A DNA stretch of 64,000 bases from Escherichia coli (GCF_001677475.2 NZ_CP015229.1), one strand, 5' to 3'; counted from the stretch's first letter, positions 9,207 through 52,376 are shown. Program-made: numbers and translations. Notes: generated from the letters alone by a model not told the origin.

Positions 9207-9263
9207 TTGAGGGGACCGTCCGGCGCTGAATTTAGCTTGATTGCCGAACGGGGCTATCCAGCA

Positions 9264-10349
9264 TTAAATACTGGCAATACTCTCACGCAAAATCCGCAGC
9301 ACCGTCTCTTCACCGCTGCGATTTGGGTTAATACGAATCGCGTAATGTTCGAGTTGCGGATTCGCCTGGCGAAACGTTCCGGAAAGGCGATAAAAAAGCG
9401 GCGGGATCTCATATTTCGACTCTGCACCAACCGGGTAAGGCAAGGCACCGCGCTTTTGCGCCTCTTCCAGTACTCTGGCGGCAATCGGCTGATGAAACTC
9501 CACAATCAACACCTTCGACTGTGCATTGGCAATCACCGCGCTTTTCACGTCCGCCACTGCGCCACCGTTAAGTAAAGCCAGCAACCGTTCAGATACCCCC
9601 GCCTGCACCGCGTGCATCACTGGCGCAAACACCAGCCCACGCAAGACTTCCAACGCCTGCGCGCCCTGAATCTGGCTGCCGCCGGAGTAAAGCGTGGCGC
9701 GAATACGGTTGATAACATCAGCATCGCCTACCACCGCGCCAACACCCTCTGGCCCAAATAGCTTGAAGCAGGAAAAAGTCGAGACATTCGCCCCGCATTC
9801 GCAGCCGATTCGCGCTACCTTCATCACCGCATAGTTGTCATCGGTTAAGGCTGGAACACTTGCCGCGCGCAACGTTGCCAGCACATCTGCCAGCACATAG
9901 CTATCCTGCGGCTGCTGGCGCGTATGCTGCACCAGCGCGGCATCTGGTTGTTGCTCGTCGACAACCTGCTTCAGTGCCGACAGGTCATTGAAATCAGCAG
10001 TGATAAGCGTCAGCCCCATCTGCTCAATAATGACCTGAGTCGTCGGGTAAACCGGCGCGTCATGCACCAGAAGACGCTGCCCCGGTTTGAGCAAAACCGC
10101 CAACGCCGCACGAATCGCTCCAGTACCCGCGCCCTGCACCAGCGCCGCAGCCTGTGCGTGAAATGCATCAGCCAGCACCTGTTCCACACGCTGGGTAATG
10201 CGCGGTTGATTCAGTCCCGGCGTTAAGCCTAAATCACCGCCAGCAAGAAACTCGCTGCCGGGAAAATGGCGGCAAATCGTGTCCACCAGCGCAAACTGCT
10301 TTTGCTGCGCCTCAATAAGCGTCAGGCTTTGCAGAGGAAACGTCTTCAT
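9264..10349 (-). CDS. yhfS: Uncharacterised putative PLP-dependent enzyme
   Basis: 361-aa ORF; recognised as YhfS by sequence and position; first gene (3'-most) of the php/yhf cluster. Confidence 0.8.
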   Translation of the reverse strand: MKTFPLQSLTLIEAQQKQFALVDTICRHFPGSEFLAGGDLGLTPGLNQPRITQRVEQVLADAFHAQAAALVQGAGTGAIRAALAVLLKPGQRLLVHDAPVYPTTQVIIEQMGLTLITADFNDLSALKQVVDEQQPDAALVQHTRQQPQDSYVLADVLATLRAASVPALTDDNYAVMKVARIGCECGANVSTFSCFKLFGPEGVGAVVGDADVINRIRATLYSGGSQIQGAQALEVLRGLVFAPVMHAVQAGVSERLLALLNGGAVADVKSAVIANAQSKVLIVEFHQPIAARVLEEAQKRGALPYPVGAESKYEIPPLFYRLSGTFRQANPQLEHYAIRINPNRSGEETVLRILRESIASI

Positions 10350-10360
10350 AGGTGCCTTCC

Positions 10361-11665
10361 TTAAGCTGGAACAAACAGACCAAGCCAGTAAAGAACATTC
10401 AGCAGAATACCGGTGATCATTACTGCCACGACCGGTGCCGCCATTTTCTGTACCGGACGGCCCAGGGATTCGTTGAAGAAGTAAATGGCAACCGCGATAG
10501 AGAATCCGGTATAATCCGCCATTTTAATTGCTGCGAAAATCGAACCGACCAGCAGCGCCACTTCCATCAGCATATTCATGGCGTTACGGATGTTATCCGA
10601 CGCATTACGCACCGACGGATAGCGCCCCAGCCATTTGCCAATCGAACGAAGCAGTAAGACTTCCGCCGAAATAACCACTGCGCCTAATACCGCTGCAACC
10701 ATCGGATTCGGCGAGAGATAGCCCACCGCATAAACAAAGGTAAAGCCCGCAACTGCATACACGCCAGTGGCTAACGCCGTGGTGGCAATCAACGGCACAA
10801 ACCCCAGTCCGCGCATAAATTCTGCCAGAGCCGCCTGATTAATCAGCGTTTGCGATTGTTCCGGCGTTACGCCTGCGGAATATGCTTTCTCCAGTGTGAA
10901 GATCGAAACTTCGCTACCAGCAAAAATCTTCATGCTGGCAACGGCGGCAATCAATGCTCCCACGATGGCGATATACGGTAAGTTTTTGATAATCCGCGAC
11001 GTGCGTTCTTCAAACACCGAAAGCCCGCTGGCATCAATGTCATTTTCATCACGATGACGCAAGTCGTGAGTTATCGCGATCCCCAGCAGCATCACCATGC
11101 CAATAAAGATTTCGATGGATTCAGGGTTAAGATGTGGGAAATAGCGCACGACGACCACACGGGTCATCAGTACCACCACGGCGGCGATCAGACTTTGCTT
11201 CCAGCCAAACTGGTAGAAAATCGCCACCAGCGGGAACAGTGCAAAAGCTGAAACCACCGGCGAGCTTAATTCCCCCAGGCTACCTAATACATCCACCGGT
11301 AGCGCGGTCAGCAGCTGGTTTACCGGCAACAGGCAAGTAAGGATCTACACGCCCCAGATAGCGCCAAGACCAAACGCCATCAGGCTGTTTATCGCCAGTA
11401 CGCCGAGGATATCGGTAGGAAGAAAGAGTAACCATGCGTTGAGCAGCCCGGTTTTCAGGGTAAACGAGATCCCCACCGAGGCCACAAAACCAATGCTCAG
11501 ACCAAAAGCGATACTCCCCGCCTCGCGACGGTTCATATAGCCTTCAATCAGTTGCGGCAGGATCGGGCGGATACCGTCATGAAAAACGGCCGCCGAGCGA
11601 TGCGCCAGAAGCGATGTCATACCCGTCAGGCACGCCACCACGATAATCTGAATATACAGATCCAT
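10361..11665 (-). pseudogene. yhfT: Putative inner-membrane transporter YhfT interrupted by an in-frame TAG stop
   Basis: Two same-frame ORFs (11345-11665, 106 aa; 10361-11329, 322 aa) separated by TAG (rev-comp of cta at 11345-11347) plus 5 sense codons; 106+1+5+322 = 434 codons, the length I recall for intact YhfT. Confidence 0.6.
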
Positions 11666-11676
11666 AGTCGTGCCTT

Positions 11677-12030
11677 TTATTTCAGATGGTTAATCAGCAT
11701 CGGAATCGCGTGTTCGACATGCTCAACGGAAAGCCCAAACGCCACTTTCCCTTCGGCGATCATTTTGGCGATATGTTCGTCTTTCGCTTTAATGCCTGGT
11801 TTGGCAATGGTGCAACTTTTGTTATAGCCAATCACCGCGATGGCAATCGACAATGCCGCGCCCGCACCGGTATTACACGCGCCGATGTAGTAATCCAGTT
11901 GCCCGGATTTCACTTTCATTGCCGCTTCCATGTCGTTGTGAATGAAAACTTCAAAACGGCCAGGAGCCGTCGCTTCAATGGTTTTTTTAATCTGCTCACG
12001 CTGTAAGCCTGCAACACCAATCTTTTTCAT
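11677..12030 (-). CDS. yhfU: Uncharacterised protein YhfU (117 aa)
   Basis: Track ORF 11677-12069; start trimmed to MKKIGVAGL; tightly spaced with php and yhfT. Confidence 0.75.
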   Translation of the reverse strand: MKKIGVAGLQREQIKKTIEATAPGRFEVFIHNDMEAAMKVKSGQLDYYIGACNTGAGAALSIAIAVIGYNKSCTIAKPGIKAKDEHIAKMIAEGKVAFGLSVEHVEHAIPMLINHLK

Positions 12031-12040
12031 GAGTCTGTCC

Positions 12041-12919
12041 TTATTGGAAAAATTGAGAGGGAGTTTCACGTAACATCACATCCACATCGGCCTGACTGAA
12101 TCCTGACTGGCGCAATTGCGGAATAAAGGTGGTCAATAAATAGTCATAGCCATAACCACCGTTGGCTTTTAAATGGGAGCGGCGCGTAATATCCATCGAC
12201 AGCATGACGCGGTTCAGCAACCCACGGTCGCGTAGCGCATGAAGCATCGCAATACGCATTTCGTCCGGGTAGTAACTGTTCTTACCAATGGTGTCGAACT
12301 GCACATACGCGCCGAGATCGATCATCTTCAAAATGTTGTCGAGGTTGTCTTTCAGATCGCAGTGACCAACGGTGACGCGCGAAAGATCAACTCCGTGGGC
12401 TTGCAGTAGCGCCAGTTGTTCCAGACCCATGGTGCTAAAAGAGGTATGCGTGGAGATCGGACGTCCGGTCTGGTTATGTGCCAGCGCGGCGGCAATAAAC
12501 ACCTTCTCTTCCAGCGGCGTAATCTTCCCTTCGCTGGAGCCGATCTCCGCGATGATCCCGGCTTTCAGCTCCGTGCCATCGATACCCTGTTCAATTTCAT
12601 CGACCATCTCCTGCGCCAGTTCCTGCACGCTGCGGGTCGCCACATGTTGCGGGAAAAACGCGTCCTGGTAATAACCGGTACAGGCCACCACGTTGATCCC
12701 GGTTTCGCGCATTACATCGAGCATAAATTGCGCATTGCGCCCCATATAACGGTTGGTCATCTCAATCACATTACGCACGCCCTGGGCCATCAGGTCGTTC
12801 ATCTCCTGGCAAATGAACGCATACTGATCAAGGCGGCAGTCCACGTTGTTTTTAAAGCCTGAGAGATCAATATGCAGATGCTCATGGGCGAGGGTGTAAC
12901 CCGTCGGATCAAAACTCAT
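12041..12919 (-). CDS. php: Phosphotriesterase homology protein (amidohydrolase-superfamily binuclear metal hydrolase)
   Basis: Track ORF 12041-12961; start trimmed to [21 protein letters not shown] (292 aa); HxH metal-binding motif visible at N-terminus. Confidence 0.85.
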
Positions 12920-14142
12920 AGGGTGTCTCCTGCAAACCGGAGGGAGGAAAGAAAAGAGCAACCATTTTGTGGCGGTGGCGCACGGAAAAATTCACACACG
13001 GTAGCCCCCACATCAGAAAGCGTGGTGCGCACACCGAGTTGCGTGTGGACCAGCCCTTGCTGATAAACCAGCACCGGCACCATTTCGCGGGTATGGTGGC
13101 TGTGACCGATTGTCGGATCGTTACCATGATCCGCCATCACGACCAGGCAATCATCTGGCTGCATCACCTCAACAAGCCGGGCAAGGTTTCGGTCAACGAC
13201 CTGCAAACGTTCGGCATAACGTGCGACGTCTTCTGCGTGACCAGCGAGGTCGGTTTCCTGGATATTGGTGCAAATAAACGCCGTCGGATGCGTGTTAAAT
13301 TCGTCGAGGGTGATATCCATAATCCGCTGGCTATCCACCAGGTTTTGCCAGCTCACGCCATAAGGATTGCTGGCAATATCCGCCACTTTCCCCACCAGCA
13401 CGGTTGGTACGCCCACTTCATACAGTTTTTGTGGCACCTGCACTTTATCATCGACACCGTAGCCCATATGCACGACCTGGAAGCCGTTGTCATAAGCGCC
13501 TGAACGCGGCGCATTGATACCAATAAAGCGCCCTTCTTTGCTTTCTGCGGCATCGAGAATGCGTTGACTGTCGGGTAACAGGCCGCCAAATGTAATGACC
13601 CGACCGACCTGTACCTGCTCACGCACAATACGACCAATTTTGATTGCGTCGTCAAAAGAGATCACAGAGAGATTGGCGGTGATGTTATAGACCTGGCCTA
13701 AATCCGCCTCGAGATTATCGCCAATCGCAACCGCCTGATTGACCCACAGAAATTGCAGATCATCGCCACGGCGCTCCACCTGCCAGCCTGCGGAAACTAA
13801 TGCCTGCTCAACACGGTCAATCACATCGCGAAAGGGCATCCGCAGCGGCGGTAACGGGCGCGTGCCTAAAATTTCCTGATGCCCCATAAAGGTATCGCCA
13901 CCTTCATGTTGCAGCTCTGCCACGCCCCAGGTTGCGGAGTCTGACGGCTGCATATCTCCAGGCGCATAACCTAATGCGTTGATTAGCCCCATTTTCTCCA
14001 GCATTGGTAGCTGCAAATGCGGCAACTGGCTCAGGATGTGACCACAGGTATTTGCCCCGGCATCCTGCGGACGCACCAACGTGACATCTTTCATTGCCCC
14101 TACGCCAAAGCTATCAATCACTAACACCACAAATCGCGCCAT
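12916..14142 (-). CDS. yhfW: Uncharacterised phosphopentomutase-like metalloenzyme
   Basis: 408-aa ORF; stop overlaps php start; contains ADHGNDPT motif typical of phosphopentomutase/alkaline-phosphatase superfamily. Confidence 0.8.
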
Positions 14143-15305
14143 TACGCCTCCAGAGGGTTGCCGAGGCTGTCATAACGACCCACAATCTCTGCCGCGCCAC
14201 GCTGAATACCAGACACCAGCACCACATCGCTACGGGTGACAAAAATCTGCGTGCGAAAACAGAGCACCACTGCACTGCTTACCGGATGCTCACCTGCCAG
14301 CGGCAGGGTGTAGTCGATACCGCTGTCATCCACGGCTTTGAGATATGTTTCAGTCACGCTTTGATTCTCTGGCGTAAACACCAACGCATGTTGCGCATGA
14401 CCACGACGGTAATAACCGCCGCCGTAGCAGTAGCTGTCACCACGGAAGTGATGGGAAATTTCGCTCAGCCAAAGCATCGCGATACGTTCAGGCTGGTCTC
14501 CCTGCTGGTTTACCGGAATCGTCCCCGTCAGTGCATGACCGGGTTCGGCATGAGTCACACCGTATTCCGCCAGTAATGGCAGCGAAGTGCAGCTGGTCGC
14601 TGAAGGCGCGTTCAGTTGCTCAATCGCAATACCAGATTTCGCCAGTTGATCCCGTACCTGTATCAGCGTGTGAAGATTCGGTGTCGGCAAAACTTTCCCG
14701 GCAGCCTCATCCCAAAGCAGGCAAGGGAAATGGGTTAGTCCGGCTAAATGCAGCCCCGGCAGTTTCTTAATTTCAGCAACCACCTCGTGCAGCGAATGCT
14801 GTACAAAACCGCTCTCCTGCCCCGGATAAAGAAAATCATCGTCGCTATAAACTTTGAGCAGCACAGACTGGATTCGCCCGGCCTTCACCGCCGCCGCAGA
14901 AACTTCCCGCGCTTTGTCGAGAGTAAACACGGTGATGACGTCGGTGCCCTGTTCAACGGCGTCAGCAACCTGATGACAAGGGATTTGTACCAGATGCCCC
15001 TGATGCGCCACCGGCAAACCAGCGCGGCGCATGACTCGCGCCTCTTTGTAATCCACCGCCACAATGCCGCTGTAGCCCAATGCCAGCAGTTTTTCCGCCA
15101 GCCACGGATTACGACCGAATTGTTTGGTCATCAGATACAGTTCAATGCCGTAAAGCCGTGCCGTCTCAATCAGCCGCTTACCGTTTTCCAGTATCTGATC
15201 CACGTCGATCACCCAGCTGTCCGGGGCGATCTTGCCCTGCTGCCACAGGCTTAGTGCGGCGGAAATCAGCGCCGGGTTCTGGCGTTTCAATGCTTCTACA
15301 AACAT
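14142..15305 (-). CDS. yhfX: Uncharacterised alanine-racemase-like (PLP fold type III) protein
   Basis: 387-aa ORF; 1-nt overlap with yhfW start; recognised as YhfX. Confidence 0.8.
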
Positions 15306-15388
15306 CTTGTTGCCTCGTTTCTGTTCCTTGAGTTAAATATTCATTTTTTTGAATATTTAGGTTGTGCGACGTGGATTTGTCGGGAGCT

Positions 15389-15751
15389 TCAAACCTCTTC
15401 GTTAGCAGCCATCCATAATCCATAAAGGTTGGCCAGCAAATAGCCTTCTTCACACGGGTTAACTTCCAATGCGAATTCCTTCAACAACACCTGATGCAAT
15501 TGCACAACGGCTTGCCAGTGGCTGGATTGCGCCAGCTCTGCCAGCAACTCGTTATCCAGTGGCTCAATTTCTTCACCACGGCGACTGCGCATAAGTGCAC
15601 TCGCCATATGTGTCATCGCCATCGTTCCTTGCTCACTGCGCACCGGCAGATGGCACTCTTTTTCCAGTACGTTGACGACCTGCATCATGCCTTTGCAGAT
15701 GTCCTTATCGATGACCCCTGCATCGCAAAGCAGGTTGAGTCTGGTTTCCAT
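15389..15751 (-). CDS. yhfY: Uncharacterised protein YhfY (120 aa)
   Basis: Track ORF 15389-15871; start trimmed to METRLNLLCDAG. Confidence 0.7.
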   Translation of the reverse strand: METRLNLLCDAGVIDKDICKGMMQVVNVLEKECHLPVRSEQGTMAMTHMASALMRSRRGEEIEPLDNELLAELAQSSHWQAVVQLHQVLLKEFALEVNPCEEGYLLANLYGLWMAANEEV

Positions 15752-15767
15752 TTCAGATGCCTTTGGT

Positions 15768-16673
15768 TTAATAACTGGGTTCCTGTTCCCCACTGACCAC
15801 TCGTTGTTGATGGGCAAGCAGGGCCTGTTTATCAACAACTGCACGCAGCAATTGTTGCATTGGGTAATCATCGACTCGCGTCAGGACCACGGCTTCGGTG
15901 GCCTGTAAAAATCGCGGATCGTCTGTGAGCGGCGTCGCTTCTAATCCCAGCATGGTCAGTTCGTTTTCCGCCACCACGTTCCAGATCACCGCATCAACAT
16001 CGCCTTTAACAATGCGTTGTAAACTCTCGTGATAAGAGAGATCGACACGTTCCACATCACTATCGCCAAAAAAGACATCGGTCATGATTTTCTGATCCGC
16101 CGAACGGTTATCCAGCCCCACGCGCTTCACGTTTGCGGACTCGCCTTTACGGCATATCAACTGGTGTTCGCCAACGTAGGTGTGCGGCCCCAATTCCAGC
16201 GCGAGGCATAACCCTTTTTGCGTGAGATAACTTTCCGCCGCCAGTCGGGAAACCACCGCCATGTCATACACGCCGTTAAGTAAACACTCCACGCGAATAT
16301 CCGCGCCGCGCATATGCGCATAGTAAAAAGGAATGCCATCAAACTGGGCTTTCAATCCGCTCGCTAAACCTTCGTACAAGCGGGTATAGGGCAAAGGCAT
16401 CGCACATACCACGTTGTTGATATCCACATGGCTCAGCAATGCTTTGTTATCCATCTCGACCAGATAACTGCCATTGCGCCCACGGCGTTCAATCCGTATC
16501 GCTCCGCTTGATTCCAGTGTTTTCAACGCTGCCTGCGTCAGGCCAACGGATGAACGGCATTCAGTTGCCAGCTCATCTATGGTTTTCAACCTATTACCGC
16601 ATTTTTCACCCAACAAATAACGGGCCAGCGTCGTGATAACGACGCCTTCTTTTTTGATAAACGTTCGACGCAT
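15768..16673 (-). CDS. yhfZ: Uncharacterised putative regulator YhfZ (N-terminal HTH-like region)
   Basis: 301-aa ORF; first gene of the yhfZ-to-yhfS co-directional cluster; AT-rich promoter region with palindrome upstream. Confidence 0.75.
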   Translation of the reverse strand: MRRTFIKKEGVVITTLARYLLGEKCGNRLKTIDELATECRSSVGLTQAALKTLESSGAIRIERRGRNGSYLVEMDNKALLSHVDINNVVCAMPLPYTRLYEGLASGLKAQFDGIPFYYAHMRGADIRVECLLNGVYDMAVVSRLAAESYLTQKGLCLALELGPHTYVGEHQLICRKGESANVKRVGLDNRSADQKIMTDVFFGDSDVERVDLSYHESLQRIVKGDVDAVIWNVVAENELTMLGLEATPLTDDPRFLQATEAVVLTRVDDYPMQQLLRAVVDKQALLAHQQRVVSGEQEPSY

Positions 16674-16702
16674 AATATATTTTCAATAAAATGAATGTTT
16701 AT

Positions 16703-16722
16703 ATCTTCATTAAAATGAAGAT
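16703..16722. promoter_or_regulatory. Near-perfect 20-bp palindrome in the yhfZ upstream region (candidate operator)
   Basis: atcttcatt-aa-aatgaagat, about 30 bp upstream of the yhfZ start codon. Confidence 0.4.
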
Positions 16723-16791
16723 AAGTGGCAACTGTGAGATGTGGAAACGGCGAGGCGCTTCACATTTTTTCGGATTATTGCAAATGAGGAT

Positions 16792-16817
16792 AAAAAAACC
16801 GGGTTTCCCCGGTTTTT
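16792..16817. terminator. Bidirectional intrinsic terminator downstream of trpS
   Basis: aaaaaaa-ccggg-tttc-cccgg-ttttt: stem-loop flanked by A-run and T-run, 15 bp past the trpS stop. Confidence 0.65.
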
Positions 16818-23263: not shown

Positions 23264-23663
23264 TTTTTCGGTACTACTAAGACTATTCGTTAATGATAAA
23301 CCCGCTTCGCTCAGAGAGCGCCGCAGGACATGAACTGAAACCTCATAAGATATTGCGAGAGTCAGACTGAAAATTATCTCAATACTCCAGCGGGTTTGGC
23401 AACTGAATAAATCACCCATCCCTCTGCATATCTGGTCGCTGCAAGCGCGCTGCCTTGCTACCACCGCTCTGGCGATAAATCACCGGGTAAGATTAGCGTA
23501 AAAAAGACAGCAAAATGCCGCCTGAATGATAAATCATCATCATGGAACGCAGGCAGCGAAGAGCACCAACTCTCAAATCGGTACTCCTTGTATGCTAAAT
23601 ACCTGCGCGCGTCAAATAGATGAAACACGTTCAGCGTAAAAACATTACCGCTTTTACGGCTGT

Positions 23664-24902
23664 TTACTCACTGGAAACCAGTCGTGGCGTGATAAACACC
23701 ACTAACTCGCGTCGTTCATCTTCTTTTCCGTCATGACGAAATAATTGCCCGAACCAGGGAATGTCGCCAAGCAACGGTACGCTATCCTGACCCGATTTAT
23801 TTTTACGGGTAAAAATGCCGCCCAGCGCCAACGTTTCTCCGCTTTTGACCTCGACCTGCGTTTCGATCTCCTGCTTATCAATCGCCAGCACTTCCCCATC
23901 AGCCTGCTGTAGCACCTGCCCCGGAACGTTCTGGCTGATGTGTAATTTCAGCCGGATGCGACCTTTATGTAACACCGTGGGCGTGACCTCCATCCCCAGG
24001 ACGGCCTCTTTAAATTCCACCGACGTCGCGCCACTTTCCCCGCTGGAAACCTGATATGGAATTTCGCTCCCCTGTTTAATGCTGGCAGGCTGAAGATGTG
24101 AGGCCAGCAGACGCGGACTGGCGATAATATCCAGCTGCTGTTTTTGTTCGAGCGCGGAAAGCTCAAGATCCAGCAAACGTCCGTTGATGCGTCCAATGTT
24201 AAAACCGACATGCGTTGTCGCCGTCGCTACGGAGAGGTCACTGCCAAGCGTGGTGACTTGCCCAACGCCACCAGCGTGTTGCGCATCAGCCAACGTCCAT
24301 TTCACGCCTAACTCACGCAAACTTTTTTCATTAATGGTGACAATATGCGCCGACAGCTCAACCTGCCCGACCGGCAGATCCATTTGCGCTACCCACTGTT
24401 CAAGCGCGCTTAACGCCGTTTTGTTATCTCGCAGCAAAAGGCGATTGGTGCGTTTATCGACGGTCATACTCCCTTTGGCACTCAGTAGCTTCTCCCCCGC
24501 TTTCGCCAGTTCTCCCGCGTCGGCGTATTGCAGGGTTATACTGCGATTTTCCAGCGGCAGATTTGCCTGCGCCCGCGCCTGCTCCGCCTCCTGACGGGCG
24601 ATATTGTCATTCTGCCAGGCAACGGAATGCACCGAGAGAATGTTGCCCTCCTGACGCGTTATCAGTCCGGCGCTTTTCACTACAGTTTGTAGTGCTTGCT
24701 TCCAGGGAACATCTGTTAGATGTAACGACACCGTACCGCTGACGTCTGGCGATACGACCAGGTTCAACTTCTCCTGTTCAGCCAGCGCCTGCAACACCTG
24801 AGCTACCGGAACGTCATCCACCATCAGCGTCACTTTTTGCGGCTTTGCCGCCTGTACGCCGGGTATCAGCATCAACAGTAGTGCGGCTATCCATTGCTTC
24901 AT
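23664..24902 (-). CDS. hofQ: Secretin-family outer-membrane protein (PilQ/ComE homologue) for DNA uptake
   Basis: 412-aa ORF with signal peptide; last gene of hofMNOPQ. Confidence 0.85.
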   Translation of the reverse strand: MKQWIAALLLMLIPGVQAAKPQKVTLMVDDVPVAQVLQALAEQEKLNLVVSPDVSGTVSLHLTDVPWKQALQTVVKSAGLITRQEGNILSVHSVAWQNDNIARQEAEQARAQANLPLENRSITLQYADAGELAKAGEKLLSAKGSMTVDKRTNRLLLRDNKTALSALEQWVAQMDLPVGQVELSAHIVTINEKSLRELGVKWTLADAQHAGGVGQVTTLGSDLSVATATTHVGFNIGRINGRLLDLELSALEQKQQLDIIASPRLLASHLQPASIKQGSEIPYQVSSGESGATSVEFKEAVLGMEVTPTVLHKGRIRLKLHISQNVPGQVLQQADGEVLAIDKQEIETQVEVKSGETLALGGIFTRKNKSGQDSVPLLGDIPWFGQLFRHDGKEDERRELVVFITPRLVSSE

Positions 24903-25218
24903 TTGTATCTCCTTGCCGTTGCCACAACCAGTGTGGCGGTTCGCAGTTTGTCCCGGTTCCCAGCGTTAGTGCGTCTGGCGTCAGCTGTAAGATCGTCCAG
25001 CCGTTTTCCAGCACATCGTTTTGCTGCACCCGTCGCCATTTTTTTTGCCCATCTTTTATTACACCGATGATGCGCTCGCCTCGCCCTACCATCCCCTGAT
25101 AGCGCCACTGGCTAAGTTCGCTAATCCGGCATAGATCTTCCGGCGGTTTAAAAGGGTCACGCATACCGGTTAAAAGGCACAATGCAATACCTGCCAACAA
25201 CCAGCGTTTAACCCTCAT
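24814..25218 (-). CDS. hofP: PilP-like DNA-utilisation protein
   Basis: Track ORF 24814-25257; start trimmed to MRVKRWLLAGIALCLL (134 aa); overlaps hofQ. Confidence 0.7.
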   Translation of the reverse strand: MRVKRWLLAGIALCLLTGMRDPFKPPEDLCRISELSQWRYQGMVGRGERIIGVIKDGQKKWRRVQQNDVLENGWTILQLTPDALTLGTGTNCEPPHWLWQRQGDTNEAMDSRTTVDADTRRTGGKAAKSDADGG

Positions 25219-25648
25219 GCGGCGTCTCCAGTTGTAGCGTGAACAAAAGGTCATCACCTTCCACGCTTAACGAAAAACGGCTCACTCTGACGTTGCGCTC
25301 TGCCAGCCGTGTAAATGCCAACGGCACTGCTTCCCACAGCGTTTTCAACGCCAACTCGCCTCCCTGCGCGGATGGATGCCAGTAAACCAGTTGTGCGTCG
25401 GGCAACTGAAAATCCAGTGGCGAAAAGAGCAGCGTTTTTTCCTCGCTGAAGGGGGTGGAGTCAACCAGGCGATACAGTGCGGCCCACTGCTGGTGATGAC
25501 TTGCCCGTAGTCGAATTAATGCGTCGCTCTCTTCCTGGTGTGTCGATGACAGAAAAATGAGCGTAACTAACATCAGCAACCAGACTGCCCAGCAAAGCTG
25601 GCGGAGGCGGGGTGATGTGGCGAACCACCAGTCAAAGAGCATGTCCAT
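25208..25648 (-). CDS. hofO: PilO-like DNA-utilisation protein
   Basis: 146-aa ORF; overlaps hofP and hofN. Confidence 0.7.
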   Translation of the reverse strand: MDMLFDWWFATSPRLRQLCWAVWLLMLVTLIFLSSTHQEESDALIRLRASHHQQWAALYRLVDSTPFSEEKTLLFSPLDFQLPDAQLVYWHPSAQGGELALKTLWEAVPLAFTRLAERNVRVSRFSLSVEGDDLLFTLQLETPHEG

Positions 25649-26171
25649 CGCTAACCTTCCTTGTTAACTGATACTCAAATTGCCAGCGTCCCTGCGCATC
25701 CTGCTGCGTGGCTCCCCTCTGATTGAGATGAAAAGATGCATCCTGGCGGAGTGACGTTTCTAGTGCGTTTAACGCGGTAATGCTTGTTGTCAGCCCCTTG
25801 ATCTCCAGCGTTCCCTGCTGCCAGCTTATCGTTGTCAGCCAGGCATGTTCGGGTAAAAGCGCCGCCAGTGCTTCCAGCGCAGATTGCCAGTCGCGGGTAA
25901 ATTCTCGCTGGCGCTGCCGTTGCAAACGCTGTTCGCGTAACTGCTGTTGCTCCAGCAAACGTGGTTTCGTTATCTGTAAGCTGTGGGCGAGTTGTTGTTC
26001 CGCCTGAAGCAAAACGGTGTTTACGCGTGCTTCGGCGTTGCTTGTCAGACGCAGTATTAGCGTTATCCCGACGGCCAGCAGCAGAGGTGCAACGAACATC
26101 AGCAACCAGAAACGAAGAAAAGCGGTCCGGCGTTGCTGTCGCCAGGGCAAAAAATTAATTGGCGGGTTCAT
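25632..26171 (-). CDS. hofN: PilN-like DNA-utilisation protein
   Basis: 179-aa ORF with N-terminal TM helix. Confidence 0.75.
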   Translation of the reverse strand: MNPPINFLPWRQQRRTAFLRFWLLMFVAPLLLAVGITLILRLTSNAEARVNTVLLQAEQQLAHSLQITKPRLLEQQQLREQRLQRQRQREFTRDWQSALEALAALLPEHAWLTTISWQQGTLEIKGLTTSITALNALETSLRQDASFHLNQRGATQQDAQGRWQFEYQLTRKVSDGHAL

Positions 26172-26950
26172 CAGTACGCCTTCCCAAGCGCCAGCCCCAG
26201 CGCGATGGCAAAGTCTCCACCTGGCGGCGGTAGCGGCGGCTGACGAACAGAAACGGCCTCCCAGGGGTCAAATCCGCCTTCGCCACATATCGCGACGCTT
26301 TCGGGATCAACGGATAACGCTGCCGCCAGCTCCTTCGCGCTAGTCATCCCCACCGCCAGTTTGCGCCCCCAGCGATAGCGCGTCGCCCACAGCCACTGTT
26401 CGTTATCACGCCAGGCCAGACATTGCTGATGAGAAGGCAAAAAAGGCAGGAATCGCTGTAATGCACTGGCATCCGGGGTGATCGCGCTAACATGAACGCG
26501 CAACCTTTCTGCCAGAGTAAGCAGCATTGCCAGCTCTTTGCTTTGCGCGGCAGTCACGTTATAAGCGGGGCTGAGTGAGTCTTCGCTGTAATCGAAGCGC
26601 AGGGAGTCCGGATCCATATCCAGCTCGCGGGCCATCGTCCCGGACAGCCAGGCCGTTTGCTCCCTCTCACCAAGGGACAACGACGGGCGCGGAAATGACC
26701 GCTGTAATGTGCGACTGGCGGGAAACGCCAACATAATATGATGACGCTGCGGCAGTTCGCGACTCCACGGTAACAACGTGTTAGCCAGCCGCTGCACATC
26801 GACAATCCGCCCATCTTTGATAATGTCGTTCTCCAGTGGCAACCGCCACCAGCGTTGCAATAAGCATTCTTTTGCGCCCCGCACGATAGCAACCGCTACC
26901 GCTTCTTGCTGTTGTAAATGCAAACCAATTTGCCAGATCTTAAATGCCAT
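26171..26950 (-). CDS. hofM: PilM-like DNA-utilisation protein
   Basis: Track ORF 26171-26977; start trimmed to MAFKIWQIGLHLQQQ (259 aa); divergent from mrcA. Confidence 0.8.
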   Translation of the reverse strand: MAFKIWQIGLHLQQQEAVAVAIVRGAKECLLQRWWRLPLENDIIKDGRIVDVQRLANTLLPWSRELPQRHHIMLAFPASRTLQRSFPRPSLSLGEREQTAWLSGTMARELDMDPDSLRFDYSEDSLSPAYNVTAAQSKELAMLLTLAERLRVHVSAITPDASALQRFLPFLPSHQQCLAWRDNEQWLWATRYRWGRKLAVGMTSAKELAAALSVDPESVAICGEGGFDPWEAVSVRQPPLPPPGGDFAIALGLALGKAY

Positions 26951-27069
26951 TGTGATGATCTCCTTATCACCCGTCACTCTGACGGGTATATCAATGCGTC
27001 TGGCTTGCCTTTATACTACCGCGCGTTTGTTTATAAACTGCCCAAATGAAACTAAATGGGAAATTTCCA

Positions 27070-29622
27070 GTGAAGTTCGTAAAGTATTTTTTGATCCTTG
27101 CAGTCTGTTGCATTCTGCTGGGAGCAGGCTCGATTTATGGCCTATACCGCTACATCGAGCCACAACTGCCGGATGTGGCGACATTAAAAGATGTTCGCCT
27201 GCAAATTCCGATGCAGATTTACAGCGCCGATGGCGAGCTGATTGCTCAATACGGTGAGAAACGTCGTATTCCGGTTACGTTGGATCAAATCCCACCGGAG
27301 ATGGTGAAAGCCTTTATCGCGACGGAAGACAGCCGCTTCTACGAGCATCACGGCGTTGACCCGGTGGGGATCTTCCGTGCAGCAAGCGTGGCGCTGTTCT
27401 CCGGCCATGCGTCACAAGGGGCGAGTACCATTACCCAGCAGCTGGCGAGAAACTTCTTCCTCAGTCCAGAACGCACACTGATGCGTAAGATTAAGGAAGT
27501 CTTCCTCGCGATTCGCATTGAACAGTTGCTGACGAAAGACGAGATCCTCGAGCTTTATCTGAACAAGATTTACCTCGGTTACCGCGCCTATGGTGTTGGT
27601 GCTGCGGCACAAGTCTATTTCGGTAAAACGGTCGACCAACTGACGCTGAACGAAATGGCGGTGATAGCCGGGCTGCCGAAAGCGCCTTCCACCTTCAACC
27701 CGCTCTACTCGATGGATCGTGCCGTCGCGCGGCGTAACGTCGTGCTGTCGCGGATGCTGGATGAAGGGTATATCACCCAACAACAGTTCGATCAGACACG
27801 CACTGAGGCGATTAACGCTAACTATCACGCGCCGGAGATTGCTTTCTCTGCGCCGTACCTGAGCGAAATGGTGCGCCAGGAGATGTATAACCGTTATGGC
27901 GAAAGTGCCTATGAAGACGGTTATCGCATTTACACCACCATCACCCGCAAAGTGCAGCAGGCCGCACAGCAGGCGGTACGTAATAACGTGCTGGACTACG
28001 ACATGCGCCACGGCTATCGCGGCCCGGCAAATGTGCTGTGGAAAGTGGGCGAGTCGGCGTGGGATAACAACAAGATTACCGATACGCTGAAGGCGCTGCC
28101 GACTTATGGTCCGCTGCTGCCTGCCGCAGTCACCAGCGCCAATCCTCAGCAAGCGACGGCGATGCTGGCGGACGGGTCGACCGTCGCATTGAGCATGGAA
28201 GGCGTTCGCTGGGCGCGTCCTTACCGTTCGGATACTCAGCAGGGACCGACACCGCGTAAAGTGACCGATGTTCTGCAAACGGGTCAGCAAATCTGGGTTC
28301 GTCAGGTTGGCGATACATGGTGGCTGGCACAAGTGCCGGAAGTGAACTCGGCGCTGGTGTCGATCAATCCGCAAAATGGTGCCGTTATGGCGCTGGTCGG
28401 TGGCTTTGATTTCAATCAGAGCAAGTTTAACCGCGCCACCCAGGCACTGCGTCAGGTGGGTTCCAACATCAAACCGTTCCTCTATACCGCGGCGATGGAT
28501 AAAGGTCTGACGCTGGCAAGTATGTTGAACGATGTGCCAATTTCCCGCTGGGATGCAGGTGCCGGTTCTGACTGGCAGCCGAAAAACTCGCCGCCACAAT
28601 ATGCTGGTCCAATTCGCTTACGTCAGGGGCTAGGTCAGTCGAAAAACGTGGTGATGGTACGCGCAATGCGGGCGATGGGCGTCGACTACGCTGCAGAATA
28701 TCTGCAACGCTTCGGCTTCCCGGCACAAAACATTGTCCACACCGAATCGCTGGCGCTGGGTTCAGCGTCCTTCACTCCAATGCAGGTGGCGCGCGGCTAC
28801 GCGGTCATGGCGAACGGCGGCTTCCTGGTGGACCCGTGGTTTATCAGCAAAATTGAAAACGATCAGGGCGGCGTGATTTTCGAAGCGAAACCGAAAGTAG
28901 CCTGCCCGGAATGCGATATTCCGGTGATTTACGGTGATACGCAGAAATCGAACGTGCTGGAAAATAACGATGTTGAAGATGTCGCTATCTCCCGCGAGCA
29001 GCAGAATGTTTCTGTACCAATGCCGCAGCTGGAGCAGGCAAATCAGGCGTTAGTGGCGAAGACTGGCGCGCAGGAGTACGCACCGCACGTCATCAACACT
29101 CCGCTGGCATTCCTGATTAAGAGTGCTTTGAACACCAATATCTTTGGTGAGCCAGGCTGGCAGGGTACCGGCTGGCGTGCAGGTCGTGATTTGCAGCGTC
29201 GCGATATCGGCGGGAAAACCGGTACCACTAACAGTTCGAAAGATGCGTGGTTCTCGGGTTACGGTCCGGGCGTTGTGACCTCGGTCTGGATTGGCTTTGA
29301 TGATCACCGTCGTAATCTCGGTCATACAACGGCTTCCGGAGCAATTAAAGATCAGATCTCAGGTTACGAAGGCGGTGCCAAGAGTGCCCAGCCTGCATGG
29401 GACGCTTATATGAAAGCCGTTCTTGAAGGTGTGCCGGAGCAGCCGTTGACGCCGCCACCGGGTATTGTGACGGTGAATATCGATCGCAGCACCGGGCAGT
29501 TAGCTAATGGTGGCAACAGCCGCGAAGAGTATTTCATCGAAGGTACGCAGCCGACACAACAGGCGGTGCACGAGGTGGGAACGACCATTATCGATAATGG
29601 CGAGGCACAGGAATTGTTCTGA
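27070..29622 (+). CDS. mrcA: Penicillin-binding protein 1A (bifunctional glycosyltransferase/transpeptidase)
   Basis: Track ORF 27046-29622; GTG start giving MKFVKYFLILAV (850 aa); transglycosylase and SxxK transpeptidase regions recognisable. Confidence 0.9.
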   Translation: MKFVKYFLILAVCCILLGAGSIYGLYRYIEPQLPDVATLKDVRLQIPMQIYSADGELIAQYGEKRRIPVTLDQIPPEMVKAFIATEDSRFYEHHGVDPVGIFRAASVALFSGHASQGASTITQQLARNFFLSPERTLMRKIKEVFLAIRIEQLLTKDEILELYLNKIYLGYRAYGVGAAAQVYFGKTVDQLTLNEMAVIAGLPKAPSTFNPLYSMDRAVARRNVVLSRMLDEGYITQQQFDQTRTEAINANYHAPEIAFSAPYLSEMVRQEMYNRYGESAYEDGYRIYTTITRKVQQAAQQAVRNNVLDYDMRHGYRGPANVLWKVGESAWDNNKITDTLKALPTYGPLLPAAVTSANPQQATAMLADGSTVALSMEGVRWARPYRSDTQQGPTPRKVTDVLQTGQQIWVRQVGDTWWLAQVPEVNSALVSINPQNGAVMALVGGFDFNQSKFNRATQALRQVGSNIKPFLYTAAMDKGLTLASMLNDVPISRWDAGAGSDWQPKNSPPQYAGPIRLRQGLGQSKNVVMVRAMRAMGVDYAAEYLQRFGFPAQNIVHTESLALGSASFTPMQVARGYAVMANGGFLVDPWFISKIENDQGGVIFEAKPKVACPECDIPVIYGDTQKSNVLENNDVEDVAISREQQNVSVPMPQLEQANQALVAKTGAQEYAPHVINTPLAFLIKSALNTNIFGEPGWQGTGWRAGRDLQRRDIGGKTGTTNSSKDAWFSGYGPGVVTSVWIGFDDHRRNLGHTTASGAIKDQISGYEGGAKSAQPAWDAYMKAVLEGVPEQPLTPPPGIVTVNIDRSTGQLANGGNSREEYFIEGTQPTQQAVHEVGTTIIDNGEAQELF

Positions 29623-34886: not shown

Positions 34887-34978
34887 ACGACGTAATGGCC
34901 TGATGCGCTTACCAGGCCTATGAAATAAATCGCAAGTTATTTTGGTCAGATACAGCGTCGTATCCGATAAAAGCATTG

Positions 34979-36703
34979 TCACTTGCTTAAGTTTATTTCC
35001 AGCGTTTCACCATCTACCGCCAGATCGCGCCACGCTTTCGGCCTCGTCCCCAGCTTTCCATCCTTCGCAGCTGTGAGTAATTTTTCTTTCGTTATTTTGC
35101 GCGGAAGTAAACTCATATCAAGCGCGTCCCATTCTTTTCTGGCTGAGTCAAAGCCATAGACAATGACTCTGTCATCATTAAAAGCAAACAGGATCCGCTC
35201 CGCCTGACCATCACTATTCAGATCTTGCTCGACCAGTACGCAGGCGTCTTTTTCAATACAGGTCATCACGTTATAGCGATCCTGGATTAAGGCCGACCAG
35301 AATGTCGCATCCGGTTTACCAGAGCCTGGGGCAATTAACACATTTTCGGCTAATACTTTTTCCGATACCTGTTCCTGAAGATGTTGCTCTCCATCTAACG
35401 CCATCAGCAGATCCCGCGCGCGTTTCGGGTCTTTCATATACTCGGCATCGCTTTTCAGCGACTCAAGCGCCGCACGTCCATAGCGACCGCTCTGTTCGAG
35501 CATATAGAGACTTACCTGGTCTGGCGTGTTTTTGCCGCTCTGATAACGTGCCATATGACTGTTCACGCTAATACGCATACTGTCCAGCACCGGCGAATTA
35601 AGAAGCACCAGTATCACCAACACCAATAACGAAACCGCAAGGTTCACTTTGCCCTGAAGAACAAGGGGGTTTTGCCCTTTACGCCAGACGATACTGACAA
35701 AATACCCCAGCGACCATACCAGTAACACCAGCACCGCCAACGCGCCCTGCAAGCGGTCGACAGTCCAGCCGTACTGAGCGACCCGCAGCCATAACGCCCA
35801 GGCGGCGACGAACACATACAGCGGAGCAGCCAGCAGAGCGGTTTTAATCAGGCAACGCAACGGCCCTGTCCAGGGAAGTGACGCTTTTTGCGGATCGCGG
35901 ACAATAGCCATTAAGATCAATTGCAAAAATGCCAGCGTCAACAGCAACCCAGCGGCGGAGATGTGGCGAGAAATCGCGCTCAGGCCCGTAAACGGCAGGG
36001 TGATAATAAACATCAGGGTTAGCAATGATACTAACGGCAGCAACCCCGTGGCGATTAGCGTGAACAACTTTTGAATAGAGTCGATTAAACGTGACTGTGT
36101 ACGCGCGAGGATCACCGCCAGTGCGGTAACCAGACCTAATGTAAGATACATAAACCAGTCGGTTGCAAAAAAGAGCGTATTGAAAAACGTGATGCCAACA
36201 AGTTTAAACAACTCGCCCCACAGTAAAAGTACCAGCCATGTCAGGCCATTGGCGAGAAAAATCACCAGTAATATAAGTACGTTATGCCATACTGACTGGT
36301 AAAAATAGCGATAGCGGCTACTGTCATTGCGGATGCGAAGGCTTTGTTGTATCCACGGTAGCAACAACATTGCCATCAGCAGCAGATAGCAACCAAAATC
36401 CCAAAGCGCCTTTTCTGCTCTCCAGGGGTTCATGCCATCAGTTTGCCACTTCAGCCAACCGCTCATCCCTGTCGTGGCAATAAACACCAGCACCAGCCAT
36501 CCCCAAAGGCGCTTCTGTTTAAAGGAGATCACGGAGAAGAGTAAAACGGATGAAAACGCGACGGTCGCAGGCACGCCATAAACAATCCAACTGAGATTTT
36601 TTCCGGCAAGCCAGGCGATCAGCAAGTAGCAAACCAGCCCCTGAAGTAATCCGGTAGCAATCATCCCCCAGCGTGTTGCTGGTGAAAGTTCAACGTTATC
36701 CAT
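34979..36703 (-). CDS. yhgE: Putative inner-membrane protein YhgE
   Basis: 574-aa ORF with many TM helices. Confidence 0.75.
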
Positions 36704-47414: not shown

Positions 47415-48308
47415 ATGAGCAAAAAGCAGAGTTCCACCCCACACGATGCGCTGTTCAAACTCTTTTTACGCCAACCGGAGACGGCACGCGATTTTCTTGC
47501 GTTTCATTTACCGGCACCCATTCACGCGCTCTGTGATATGAAAACCCTCAAGCTGGAGTCGAGCAGCTTTATTGATGACGATCTGCGTGAAAGCTATTCC
47601 GACGTGCTGTGGTCGGTGAAAACGGAACAAGGACCAGGATATATCTATTGTCTGATTGAACATCAAAGCACCTCAAACAAACTGATCGCATTTCGCATGA
47701 TGCGTTACGCCATTGCCGCAATGCAAAATCACCTTGATGCCGGATACAAAACGTTGCCGATGGTGGTGCCATTGTTGTTTTACCACGGTATTGAAAGCCC
47801 CTATCCCTATTCGCTGTGTTGGCTGGATTGTTTTGCCGATCCCAACCTGGCAAGGCAGCTTTATGCCTCTGCATTTCCGCTGATTGATGTCACCGTCATG
47901 CCTGATGATGAAATCATGCAGCACCGACGCATGGCGCTGCTGGAGTTAATTCAAAAACATATCCGTCAACGCGATCTGATGGGGCTGGTAGAGCAAATGG
48001 CCTGCTTATTAAGTAGTGGATACGCTAATGACAGACAAATCAAAGGGCTGTTTAATTACATCTTGCAAACCGGCGATGCGGTACGTTTTAACGATTTTAT
48101 CGACGGCGTTGCCGAACGTTCACCGAAACACAAGGAGAGTTTAATGACTATTGCGGAAAGATTGCGGCAGGAAGGGTTTCAGAAAGGTATACGTACCAAC
48201 GCCCTAAATATTGCCAAAACCATGCTGGATGCCGGAGTCTCTCTTGAGGACGTTCTGCGATTTACCAGCCTGACGGTTGAAGACCTTGCTGAAATAAATC
48301 ATCAATAA
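47415..48308 (+). CDS. rpnA: Recombination-promoting nuclease RpnA (YhgA-like, PD-(D/E)XK transposase_31 family)
   Basis: 297-aa ORF recognised as YhgA/RpnA; exact start uncertain by a few codons. Confidence 0.8.
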
Positions 48309-48325
48309 CGTAAAGGATGGTTTTA

Positions 48326-48499
48326 ATGACAGATGCAGAAAGAGAATATCTTATTAGTTACCTGATTGGTTATTTATTGGGTCGACGCCTGGAAGCCCTG
48401 GATATCGCCAAAAGAATGCTGTAATCCTGAGTCCCTCTTGCGGACATCATGCGTTTTACCGGGGTGTCAGAAGAAGAGTTGGCTGCGGCGAGTCAGTAA
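48326..48499 (+). repeat. Diverged, frame-broken tandem duplicate of the rpnA 3' tail (includes a 32-codon ORF at 48326-48424)
   Basis: Nucleotide and peptide similarity to rpnA 48144-48308: atgacagatgcagaaaga... vs atgactattgcggaaaga...; ...LDIAKRML vs ...LNIAKTML; VPLADIMRFTGVSEEELAAASQ* vs [23 protein letters not shown]. Confidence 0.6.
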
Positions 48500-49317: not shown

Positions 49318-50019
<702 letters not shown>

Positions 50020-52361: not shown

Positions 52362-52376
52362 ATCAACCGCACCCTA

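Follow-up and report, generated by a model that had tools for sequence, protein, structure and literature searches.

The question raised by the present stretch of Escherichia coli DNA (NZ_CP015229.1, 64,000 nucleotides (nt), called the window in the following) is whether the five overlapping genes at positions 23664-26950 represent a maintained machinery for pilus assembly and DNA uptake or the remains of one. The locus is the core-genome operon hofMNOPQ (formerly yrfDCBA-hofQ), which very probably encodes the envelope part of a type IVa pilus or competence pseudopilus. The operon is already known and ordinary, and it had been rightly recognised in the first-pass annotation of the window, which described five overlapping and intact genes for PilM-, PilN-, PilO-, PilP- and PilQ-like proteins divergent from mrcA. 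The coordinates of that description proved exact, including the GTG start codon of mrcA at 27070, the alignment with E. coli K-12 showed no frameshift or stop codon in the five frames, and the family and fold tests agree with the protein assignments, among which that of HofO is the least directly supported.

Operon organisation and protein families

All five genes are located on the minus strand, beginning with hofM (26171-26950, 259 amino acids), which is followed by hofN (25632-26171, 179 amino acids), hofO (25208-25648, 146 amino acids), hofP (24814-25218, 134 amino acids) and hofQ (23664-24902, 412 amino acids). Each of the four junctions is an overlap, of 89 nt between hofQ and hofP, 11 nt between hofP and hofO, 17 nt between hofO and hofN, and 1 nt between hofN and hofM, where the start of hofN and the stop of hofM have one base in common (TGATG). 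The gene mrcA is read divergently from hofM on the plus strand and starts as in K-12. An ungapped comparison with K-12 MG1655 revealed that all five hof genes are equal in length, start and stop codons, without any internal stop or indel. At the nucleotide level the genes are 95.9-98.6% identical to K-12, and the amino acid identities amount to 99.3% for HofQ, 98.5% for HofP, 91.2% for HofO, 94.4% for HofN and 97.3% for HofM; the number of amino acid changes is highest in HofO (13) and HofN (10). In total, 78 point substitutions and no other kind of difference were found in 23664-27300, and the five window proteins keep every residue that is at least 90% conserved among the orthologues. The whole window is colinear with K-12 positions 3495637-3559601 at 95.6-98.7% identity.

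The overlap between hofP and hofQ (24814-24902) encodes the tail of HofP in one frame and the signal peptide of HofQ in another, and a long overlap of these two genes, 35-152 nt as called, is present in every other genus examined. A Shine-Dalgarno sequence for hofQ, GGGAGA, can be read from the sequence 6 nt before its ATG at 24902. At the other end of the operon, the consensus scan pointed to a weak terminator-like hairpin (23647-23660, minus strand) with a 5-bp stem and a T-rich tail, which begins 4 nt past the hofQ stop; the same scan found no more terminator-like sites in the region than in shuffled sequence.

The product of the last gene, HofQ, is predicted to be an outer-membrane secretin with STN/N0, N1 and secretin domains, corresponding to the Pfam families STN (PF07660), Secretin_N (PF03958) and Secretin (PF00263, E 2.5e-47). 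It scored 854 bits with the NCBIfam model NF007851 'DNA uptake porin HofQ' (cutoff 598) and 448 bits with TIGR02515 PilQ (cutoff 284), whereas the 194 bits obtained with the GspD equivalog are below the cutoff of 351 and do not make it a member of that family; it also stayed below the cutoff for type III secretins. By these family scores HofQ is assigned to the PilQ-type secretins. Its closest solved relative is 6W6M (E 6e-75), deposited as a type IV pilus secretin PilQ family protein, and by similarity to this structure HofQ is predicted to form a gated multimeric channel in the outer membrane.

HofN, a predicted bitopic inner-membrane protein, matched the Pfam family PilN (PF05137) with 39.8 bits (cutoff 22.8, E 4.8e-10), and a profile of its orthologues matched PilN of Myxococcus xanthus (3JC8_Na, E 5.7e-6). 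Near its N-terminus it bears the motif N-[FL]-LPWR, in which N6, L8, P9, W10 and R11 do not vary among 10 taxa. The N-terminal peptide of PilN is the part bound by PilM (PDB 5EOU, 2YCH). Taken at the sequence level, HofN is identified as PilN.

A different situation was found for HofM, which had no Pfam match at threshold; its score of 15 bits lies below the cutoffs of both PilM_2 (PF11104, 27 bits) and TIGR01175 (133 bits), and a direct search of its sequence against PDB returned no relevant match. Nevertheless, 24 of the 27 HofM orthologues match PilM_2 and T2SSL weakly, with the more distant orthologues reaching E 1.5e-6. The AlphaFold model built with the 27 orthologues has a predicted local distance difference test score (pLDDT) of 84 and a predicted template modelling score (pTM) of 0.83. 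When this model was submitted to Foldseek, the top PDB matches were PilM of Pseudomonas aeruginosa (5EOU) and of Thermus thermophilus (2YCH) with E 1e-13 and 1e-10 and a template modelling (TM) score, TMq, of 0.72, followed by the cytoplasmic domain of GspL (4PHT, TMt 0.67) and FtsA. According to the model, HofM is a cytoplasmic protein with a shortened PilM-type actin-like fold. In a profile comparison, a PilM-like sequence that does not stem from a database could be aligned with HofM over residues 8-100 only, and this alignment is not relied on.

HofP is a predicted periplasmic protein that matched a single Pfam family, HofP (PF10748, E 2.7e-79). The core of its AlphaFold model (residues 30-100) reached pLDDT values of 75-88, and the 12 best PDB matches of this core were all PilP, the GspC HR domain, Legionella LspC or GspB, among them 3JC8_Pa, 2IVW, 3OSS_C, 2LC4 and 2Y4X, although with modest E values of 9.6e-4 to 0.19 and TM scores of 0.4-0.7. 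The motif LTGMRDPF as well as Cys30 and Cys92 are invariant among the orthologues. The modelled core is a beta-sandwich with the HR-domain fold as in PilP and GspC, while the C-terminal tail encoded in the overlap with hofQ was modelled with low confidence and is probably disordered.

Finally, HofO gave a match to the Pfam family PF25319 'HofO EpsM-like domain' (E 6e-24), and T2SSM/GspM was matched by three of the ten HofO orthologues (best E 2e-5). No match to PilO was found in Pfam, and the search of PDB with a HofO profile gave nothing relevant. The sequence comparisons suggest its placement among the inner-membrane proteins of the PilO/GspM class, which is the least directly supported assignment of the five.

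The regulatory region of hofM

In K-12, the transcription of hofMNOPQ is poor or undetectable without Sxy, and Sxy induces yrfD (hofM) 16-fold in a manner that needs CRP, the receptor protein of cyclic AMP (cAMP), and cAMP (PMC1635313); the first-pass annotation was thus correct to call the operon poorly expressed, as long as Sxy is not induced. Two CRP-S sites and no CRP-N site have been predicted for the yrfD promoter, located at the ends of a fragment used for electrophoretic mobility shift assays (EMSA), one of them at -246, and this fragment is shifted weakly by CRP (PMC1635313). Both EMSA primers of Cameron & Redfield 2006 map to the window with 0 mismatches and bracket 27101-27226, which places the published fragment wholly inside the coding sequence of mrcA. 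It had been proposed to look for CRP-S sites in the 119-bp divergent spacer between hofM and mrcA (26951-27069); no position in this spacer comes within three mismatches of TGCGA-N6-TCGCA. Hence, any regulatory analysis of hofM must cover the mrcA coding sequence and not the spacer alone. The spacer is 100% identical to K-12, and since the entire segment 26889-27300 is free of any difference, the regulatory experiments done with K-12 should be transferable to the present strain.

Inside the published fragment, two candidate sites can be proposed on the hofM strand (minus). The proximal one, TAAATCGAGCCTGCTCCCAGCA (27116-27137), is our own assignment and lies at -166 to -187 from the hofM ATG; its core (27119-27134) has three mismatches to TGCGA-N6-TCGCA and it falls into a block with little or no variation among 10 sequences representing nine genera. 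The distal candidate, ATCTGCATCGGAATTTGCAGGC (27197-27218), has its proximal edge at -247, to be compared with the published -246 (PMC1635313). Its core (27200-27215) likewise shows three mismatches, and C6 and G17 are present; across the genera it is conserved in the manner of coding DNA, and Citrobacter and Kosakonia do not retain its right half-site. When two or fewer mismatches were permitted, a scan of the whole window detected no site near hofM and fewer sites in total than in shuffled sequence.

The spacer itself harbours the hofM Shine-Dalgarno sequence GGAG (26960-26963) and, just upstream of it, a putative leader hairpin (26968-26988, minus strand) with the core CCCGTC...GACGGG, for which -12.8 kcal/mol and a z of -2.4 were calculated. 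The stem is kept in seven of nine taxa, with one pair appearing as C-G, U-G or U-A, and an Rfam scan of the whole window returned no family at gathering score; taken together this is weak evidence for the hairpin.

In the alignment of the spacer and the beginning of mrcA, which comprises the 10 sequences from nine genera, hardly any variation is seen between approximately -30 and -190 counted from the hofM ATG, a segment made up of spacer and mrcA codons 1-23 with a mean column identity of 91%; HofM itself shares only about half of its residues (50%) among the same taxa. In codons 1-23 of mrcA, 7 third positions vary compared to a mean of 20.4, which is the lowest value of 828 windows of 23 codons. 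The 5' end of aroK behaves alike, where 2 of 23 third positions vary compared to a mean of 15.3. Because aroK shows the same effect, the conservation is not attributable specifically to the control of hofM, and the synonymous conservation at the mrcA 5' end was not accepted as proving that a hofM promoter is embedded there. It appears unlikely that the block of approximately 190 bp formed by the hofM leader and the first 23 codons of mrcA, which contains the proximal CRP-S candidate, serves both genes as a common bidirectional control region with hofM transcription, driven by Sxy/CRP, starting inside mrcA. If true, the building of the competence pilus would be physically coupled to, or would interfere with, the expression of PBP1a (mrcA).

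Function, selection and decay

The most likely mechanism by analogy is that of a standard type IVa alignment subcomplex combined with the HofQ secretin. The operon would be near-silent in ordinary culture and would be switched on by cAMP-CRP and Sxy/TfoX acting at weak CRP-S sites inside mrcA, and the five genes would be translationally coupled via their overlapping stop and start codons. HofQ would provide the secretin channel in the outer membrane, onto whose N-terminal domains the PilP-like periplasmic connector HofP would dock, as expected from homology. HofN and HofO would act as PilN- and PilO-like bitopic proteins of the inner membrane, and HofM as the PilM-like cytoplasmic protein which, again by homology, would clamp the conserved N-terminal peptide of HofN. 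The alignment subcomplex of HofM, HofN, HofO and HofP could then link an inner-membrane pilus motor encoded elsewhere to HofQ, such that a short PpdD fibre would cross the outer membrane and DNA would be brought into the periplasm. The partners expected outside the window are ppdD-hofBC, ppdAB-ygdB-ppdC, a prepilin peptidase and the homologues of comEA, comEC and dprA, whereas the comF homologue gntX is found nearby. In this scheme regulation and DNA uptake are taken from the literature, while we infer the protein contacts and the activity in the present strain.

Regarding the output of this machine, the Sxy-dependent DNA uptake of a recombineering strain was abolished in a hofQ mutant (Sinha & Redfield 2012, PMC3330819), which is in line with a role in DNA uptake. 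The same machine might instead be selected mainly as an adhesive type IV pilus (PpdD, 'haemorrhagic coli pilus'), with the uptake of DNA for nutrition or otherwise being secondary. This reading is supported by the uropathogenic strain UTI89, in which the deletion of hofQ caused a defect in kidney colonisation that was restored by complementation (Kulkarni et al. 2009, PMC2649431), by hofMNOPQ being one module of the plasmid gene set that assembles PpdD pili in E. coli (bioRxiv 10.1101/856302), and by enterohaemorrhagic E. coli, whose PpdD-based pili mediate adherence (PMC2920817). However, the control by Sxy and CRP-S sites is a signature of the competence regulon common to Haemophilus and Vibrio (PMC1635313), the requirement of hofQ for DNA uptake points in the same direction, and RefSeq annotates a hofM frameshift in O157:H7, which is precisely the pathotype to which these pili are ascribed. 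Adhesion as the main selected output is possible but rather doubtful, and roles as pilus and in DNA uptake are not mutually exclusive.

The conservation of the operon beyond E. coli argues for its maintenance. Exact-protein look-ups found the arrangement igaA-nudE-mrcA divergent from hofMNOPQ-aroK-aroB in E. albertii, E. fergusonii, Salmonella, Citrobacter, Kosakonia, Intestinirhabdus and Yokenella, and in Lelliottia the core of mrcA divergent from hofMNOPQ-aroK-aroB is kept, with different genes beyond mrcA. Compared with Salmonella, HofQ is 86% identical, the proteins HofM, HofN, HofO and HofP only 45-66%, and MrcA 93%. The ratios of nonsynonymous to synonymous substitution rates (dN/dS) towards E. 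albertii, at dS values of 0.3-0.9, are 0.022 for hofQ, 0.10 for hofM, 0.15 for hofN, 0.19 for hofO and 0.26 for hofP, compared to 0.017 for mrcA; with values of 0.02-0.26, all five hof genes are under purifying selection. The constraint on hofQ equals that on a housekeeping gene; the other four, all small, evolve 5-10 times faster. Towards K-12 the corresponding ratios are 0.06 for hofQ, 0.18 for hofM, 0.12 for hofP and 0.020 for mrcA, with a median of about 0.04 for the neighbouring genes; hofN and hofO are treated below.

Within E. coli, an intact copy is the usual state. The 3287-bp operon was found at a coverage of at least 80% in 5425 of 5426 complete E. coli genomes, and approximately 54 of 60 genomes in a rank-spread sample, i.e. 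about 90%, have exactly this length. The intactness of the present copy, which had been considered noteworthy, is accordingly not exceptional. The genomes deviating in length belonged mostly to O157:H7. In the O157:H7 strain 2159, hofM is frameshifted by the loss of 1 bp from a run of G at nt 753 of 780, and the frameshift is annotated in RefSeq. Two of three O157:H7-labelled genomes in a later sample were also found to be 1 bp short, as was NZRM4169, at the same chromosomal position. Furthermore, hofN is frameshifted in strain 20-20, strain GPEC102 combines an internal stop in hofP with an ISVsa5 insertion in hofN, and in strain CNR20180903 only 67% of the operon could be aligned, and the query segment that covers most of hofQ stayed unmatched.

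Several observations have to be weighed against the proposed mechanism and its maintenance. First, HofM falls short of canonical PilM by about 95 residues (259 versus approximately 350 amino acids), and in place of the phosphate-1 motif it has GLHLQQQ, with an invariant G9-L-H11 followed by QQ. The canonical phosphate-1 motif of actin-fold ATPases is D-x-G. Being short and apparently devoid of this motif, HofM may not bind ATP as PilM does, which places its nucleotide dependence in doubt; as a minor and unlikely possibility, the enterobacterial HofM might represent an ATP-independent, GspL-like minimal form of PilM. Second, PilP is a lipoprotein, but the HofP orthologues do not share a lipobox cysteine where the signal peptide ends, the invariant sequence there being LTG|MRDPF. 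Third, the CRP-S candidates are at chance level, because with three mismatches in ten core positions about 1.75 hits are expected per 500 bp, so that sequence alone does not establish them. Fourth, the dN/dS ratios towards K-12 reach 0.80 for hofO (13 nonsynonymous and 5 synonymous changes) and 0.39 for hofN (10 and 8), small counts of 18 substitutions each, which could reflect relaxed constraint within E. coli. Fifth, the decayed copies in some E. coli lineages indicate that the operon is dispensable in at least some niches.

That the operon is a cryptic relic, silent and unselected in E. coli-like lineages, intact only for want of mutation and heading to pseudogenes, would be in line with its poor transcription without artificial Sxy induction (PMC1635313), with natural transformation of E. 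coli not being detected (PMC3330819), with the elevated hofO and hofN ratios, with the independent lesions in O157:H7, 20-20 and GPEC102 and with the numerous shortened versions of HofM and HofP that the protein database contains, but it is very unlikely in view of the purifying selection on all five genes with hofQ as constrained as mrcA, the five frames kept in nine genera despite the divergence of the four small proteins, the retention of every highly conserved residue in the window proteins, the exact operon length in most sampled genomes and the hofQ mutant phenotypes in DNA uptake (PMC3330819) and kidney colonisation (PMC2649431). Regarding the hofMNOPQ operon as an envelope module in its standard role, the lineage represented by the window keeps the complete set of envelope proteins for Sxy-inducible DNA uptake and PpdD pili, which makes it a candidate for acquiring DNA naturally, provided that the remaining regulon genes are there as well. 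The finding is of practical value for annotation.

Neighbouring genes, lineage and known systems

Outside the operon, the gene gntX (yhgH; 49336-50019, plus strand) encodes an intact protein of 227 amino acids with 97.4% amino acid identity to K-12, which belongs to the ComF family and the same regulon; it scored 431 bits with NF008616 (cutoff 304) and 270 bits with TIGR00201 comF (cutoff 234). The first-pass annotation had placed this ComF-like gene 22 kb downstream of the operon. It is indeed located in the same window, 22.4 kb from the hofM start, which is downstream on the plus strand but upstream with regard to the direction of hof transcription. The intactness of the hof genes had also been regarded as notable in a strain with a lesion in yhfT. 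The lesion is real, because yhfT (10361-11665, minus strand) carries a TTG to TAG change relative to K-12 at codon 107 of 434 (11345-11347) with 99% protein identity in the rest; however, it concerns the unrelated yhfS-yhfZ cluster 12 kb away and has no bearing on hof. This block (9248-16815) is the most divergent part of the window with 95.6% identity to K-12. Its identity drops to 90-95% in 939 E. coli genomes, and in 364 genomes the coverage is below 80%.

Two further suspected lesions were rejected. The TAG stop in malQ (52374-54458) at codon 694 is not an internal stop and occurs one codon earlier than in K-12, which is a trivial length variant, and rpnA is represented by an intact open reading frame of 297 amino acids (47415-48308) with a different C-terminal end. 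Approximately 216 bp comprising the 3' part of rpnA and sequence beyond (48177-48392) are not present in K-12. At the hslO-yhgE junction, 34911-34999 at the 3' end of yhgE could not be aligned with K-12, and the last 21 nt of the K-12 yhgE are without counterpart.

The best identities among the 5426 complete E. coli genomes were 98.3% for the 7-kb hof-mrcA region, 97.5% for hofN-hofO and 96.2% for yhfS-yhfZ. Since no complete genome exceeds these values, the lineage is not represented among the complete RefSeq E. coli genomes, and judged from its sequence the window is assigned to a divergent Escherichia lineage. The identities to all complete E. coli genomes fall into a narrow band. A 30-mer of hofN taken as diagnostic (26013-26042) had no exact match among the GTDB species representatives. 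Full identity (100%) over 6441 bp was found with the draft assembly GCA_027552025.1, and 84 indexed blocks of the public collection contain the exact HofO protein.

Among known systems, the operon yrfD-yrfC-yrfB-yrfA-hofQ of E. coli K-12 (hofMNOPQ; b3395-b3391) has the same gene order, lengths, overlaps, mrcA spacer and downstream genes aroK-aroB, and it differs from the window copy by point substitutions only. The operon comABCDE(F) of Haemophilus influenzae has been treated as orthologous, with yrfD as the orthologue of comA (Cameron & Redfield, PMC1635313). It is also controlled by Sxy and CRP-S, and its CRP-S site likewise overlaps an upstream open reading frame (PMC1635313). Unlike in E. 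coli, comF has joined the operon in H. influenzae, and there is a single CRP-S site; this comparison is drawn from the paper.

The type II secretion system with GspL, GspM, GspC and GspD represents a structurally related envelope assembly. The pseudopilin or GspE/GspF genes of such a system are not adjacent to the hof operon, and HofQ matches GspD below the cutoff. Similarities exist between the HofM model and the cytoplasmic domain of GspL, between the HofO orthologues and T2SSM, and between the HofP core and the GspC HR domain (3OSS_C, TMt 0.72), whereas, in the manner of pilus systems, HofM and HofN are made as two proteins and not fused as in GspL.

Compared with the type IVa PilMNOPQ of Pseudomonas, Myxococcus and Thermus, HofM is shorter and apparently does not contain the canonical phosphate-1 motif, HofP is without the conserved lipobox cysteine, and HofO has no sequence match to PilO and is nearer to GspM/EpsM. 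HofQ is also compact, with 412 amino acids compared to 571-901 in its six best-matching solved PilQ chains, to which the alignments begin at chain residue 158 or later, and only the STN, Secretin_N and Secretin domains were found in it. Nevertheless, the genes of the hof operon follow the same M-N-O-P-Q order, HofM resembles PilM in its modelled fold, HofN resembles PilN (3JC8) and HofP resembles PilP (3JC8_Pa, 2LC4, 2Y4X), and HofQ is closest to the solved PilQ secretins 6W6M, 6VE2 and 3JC8.

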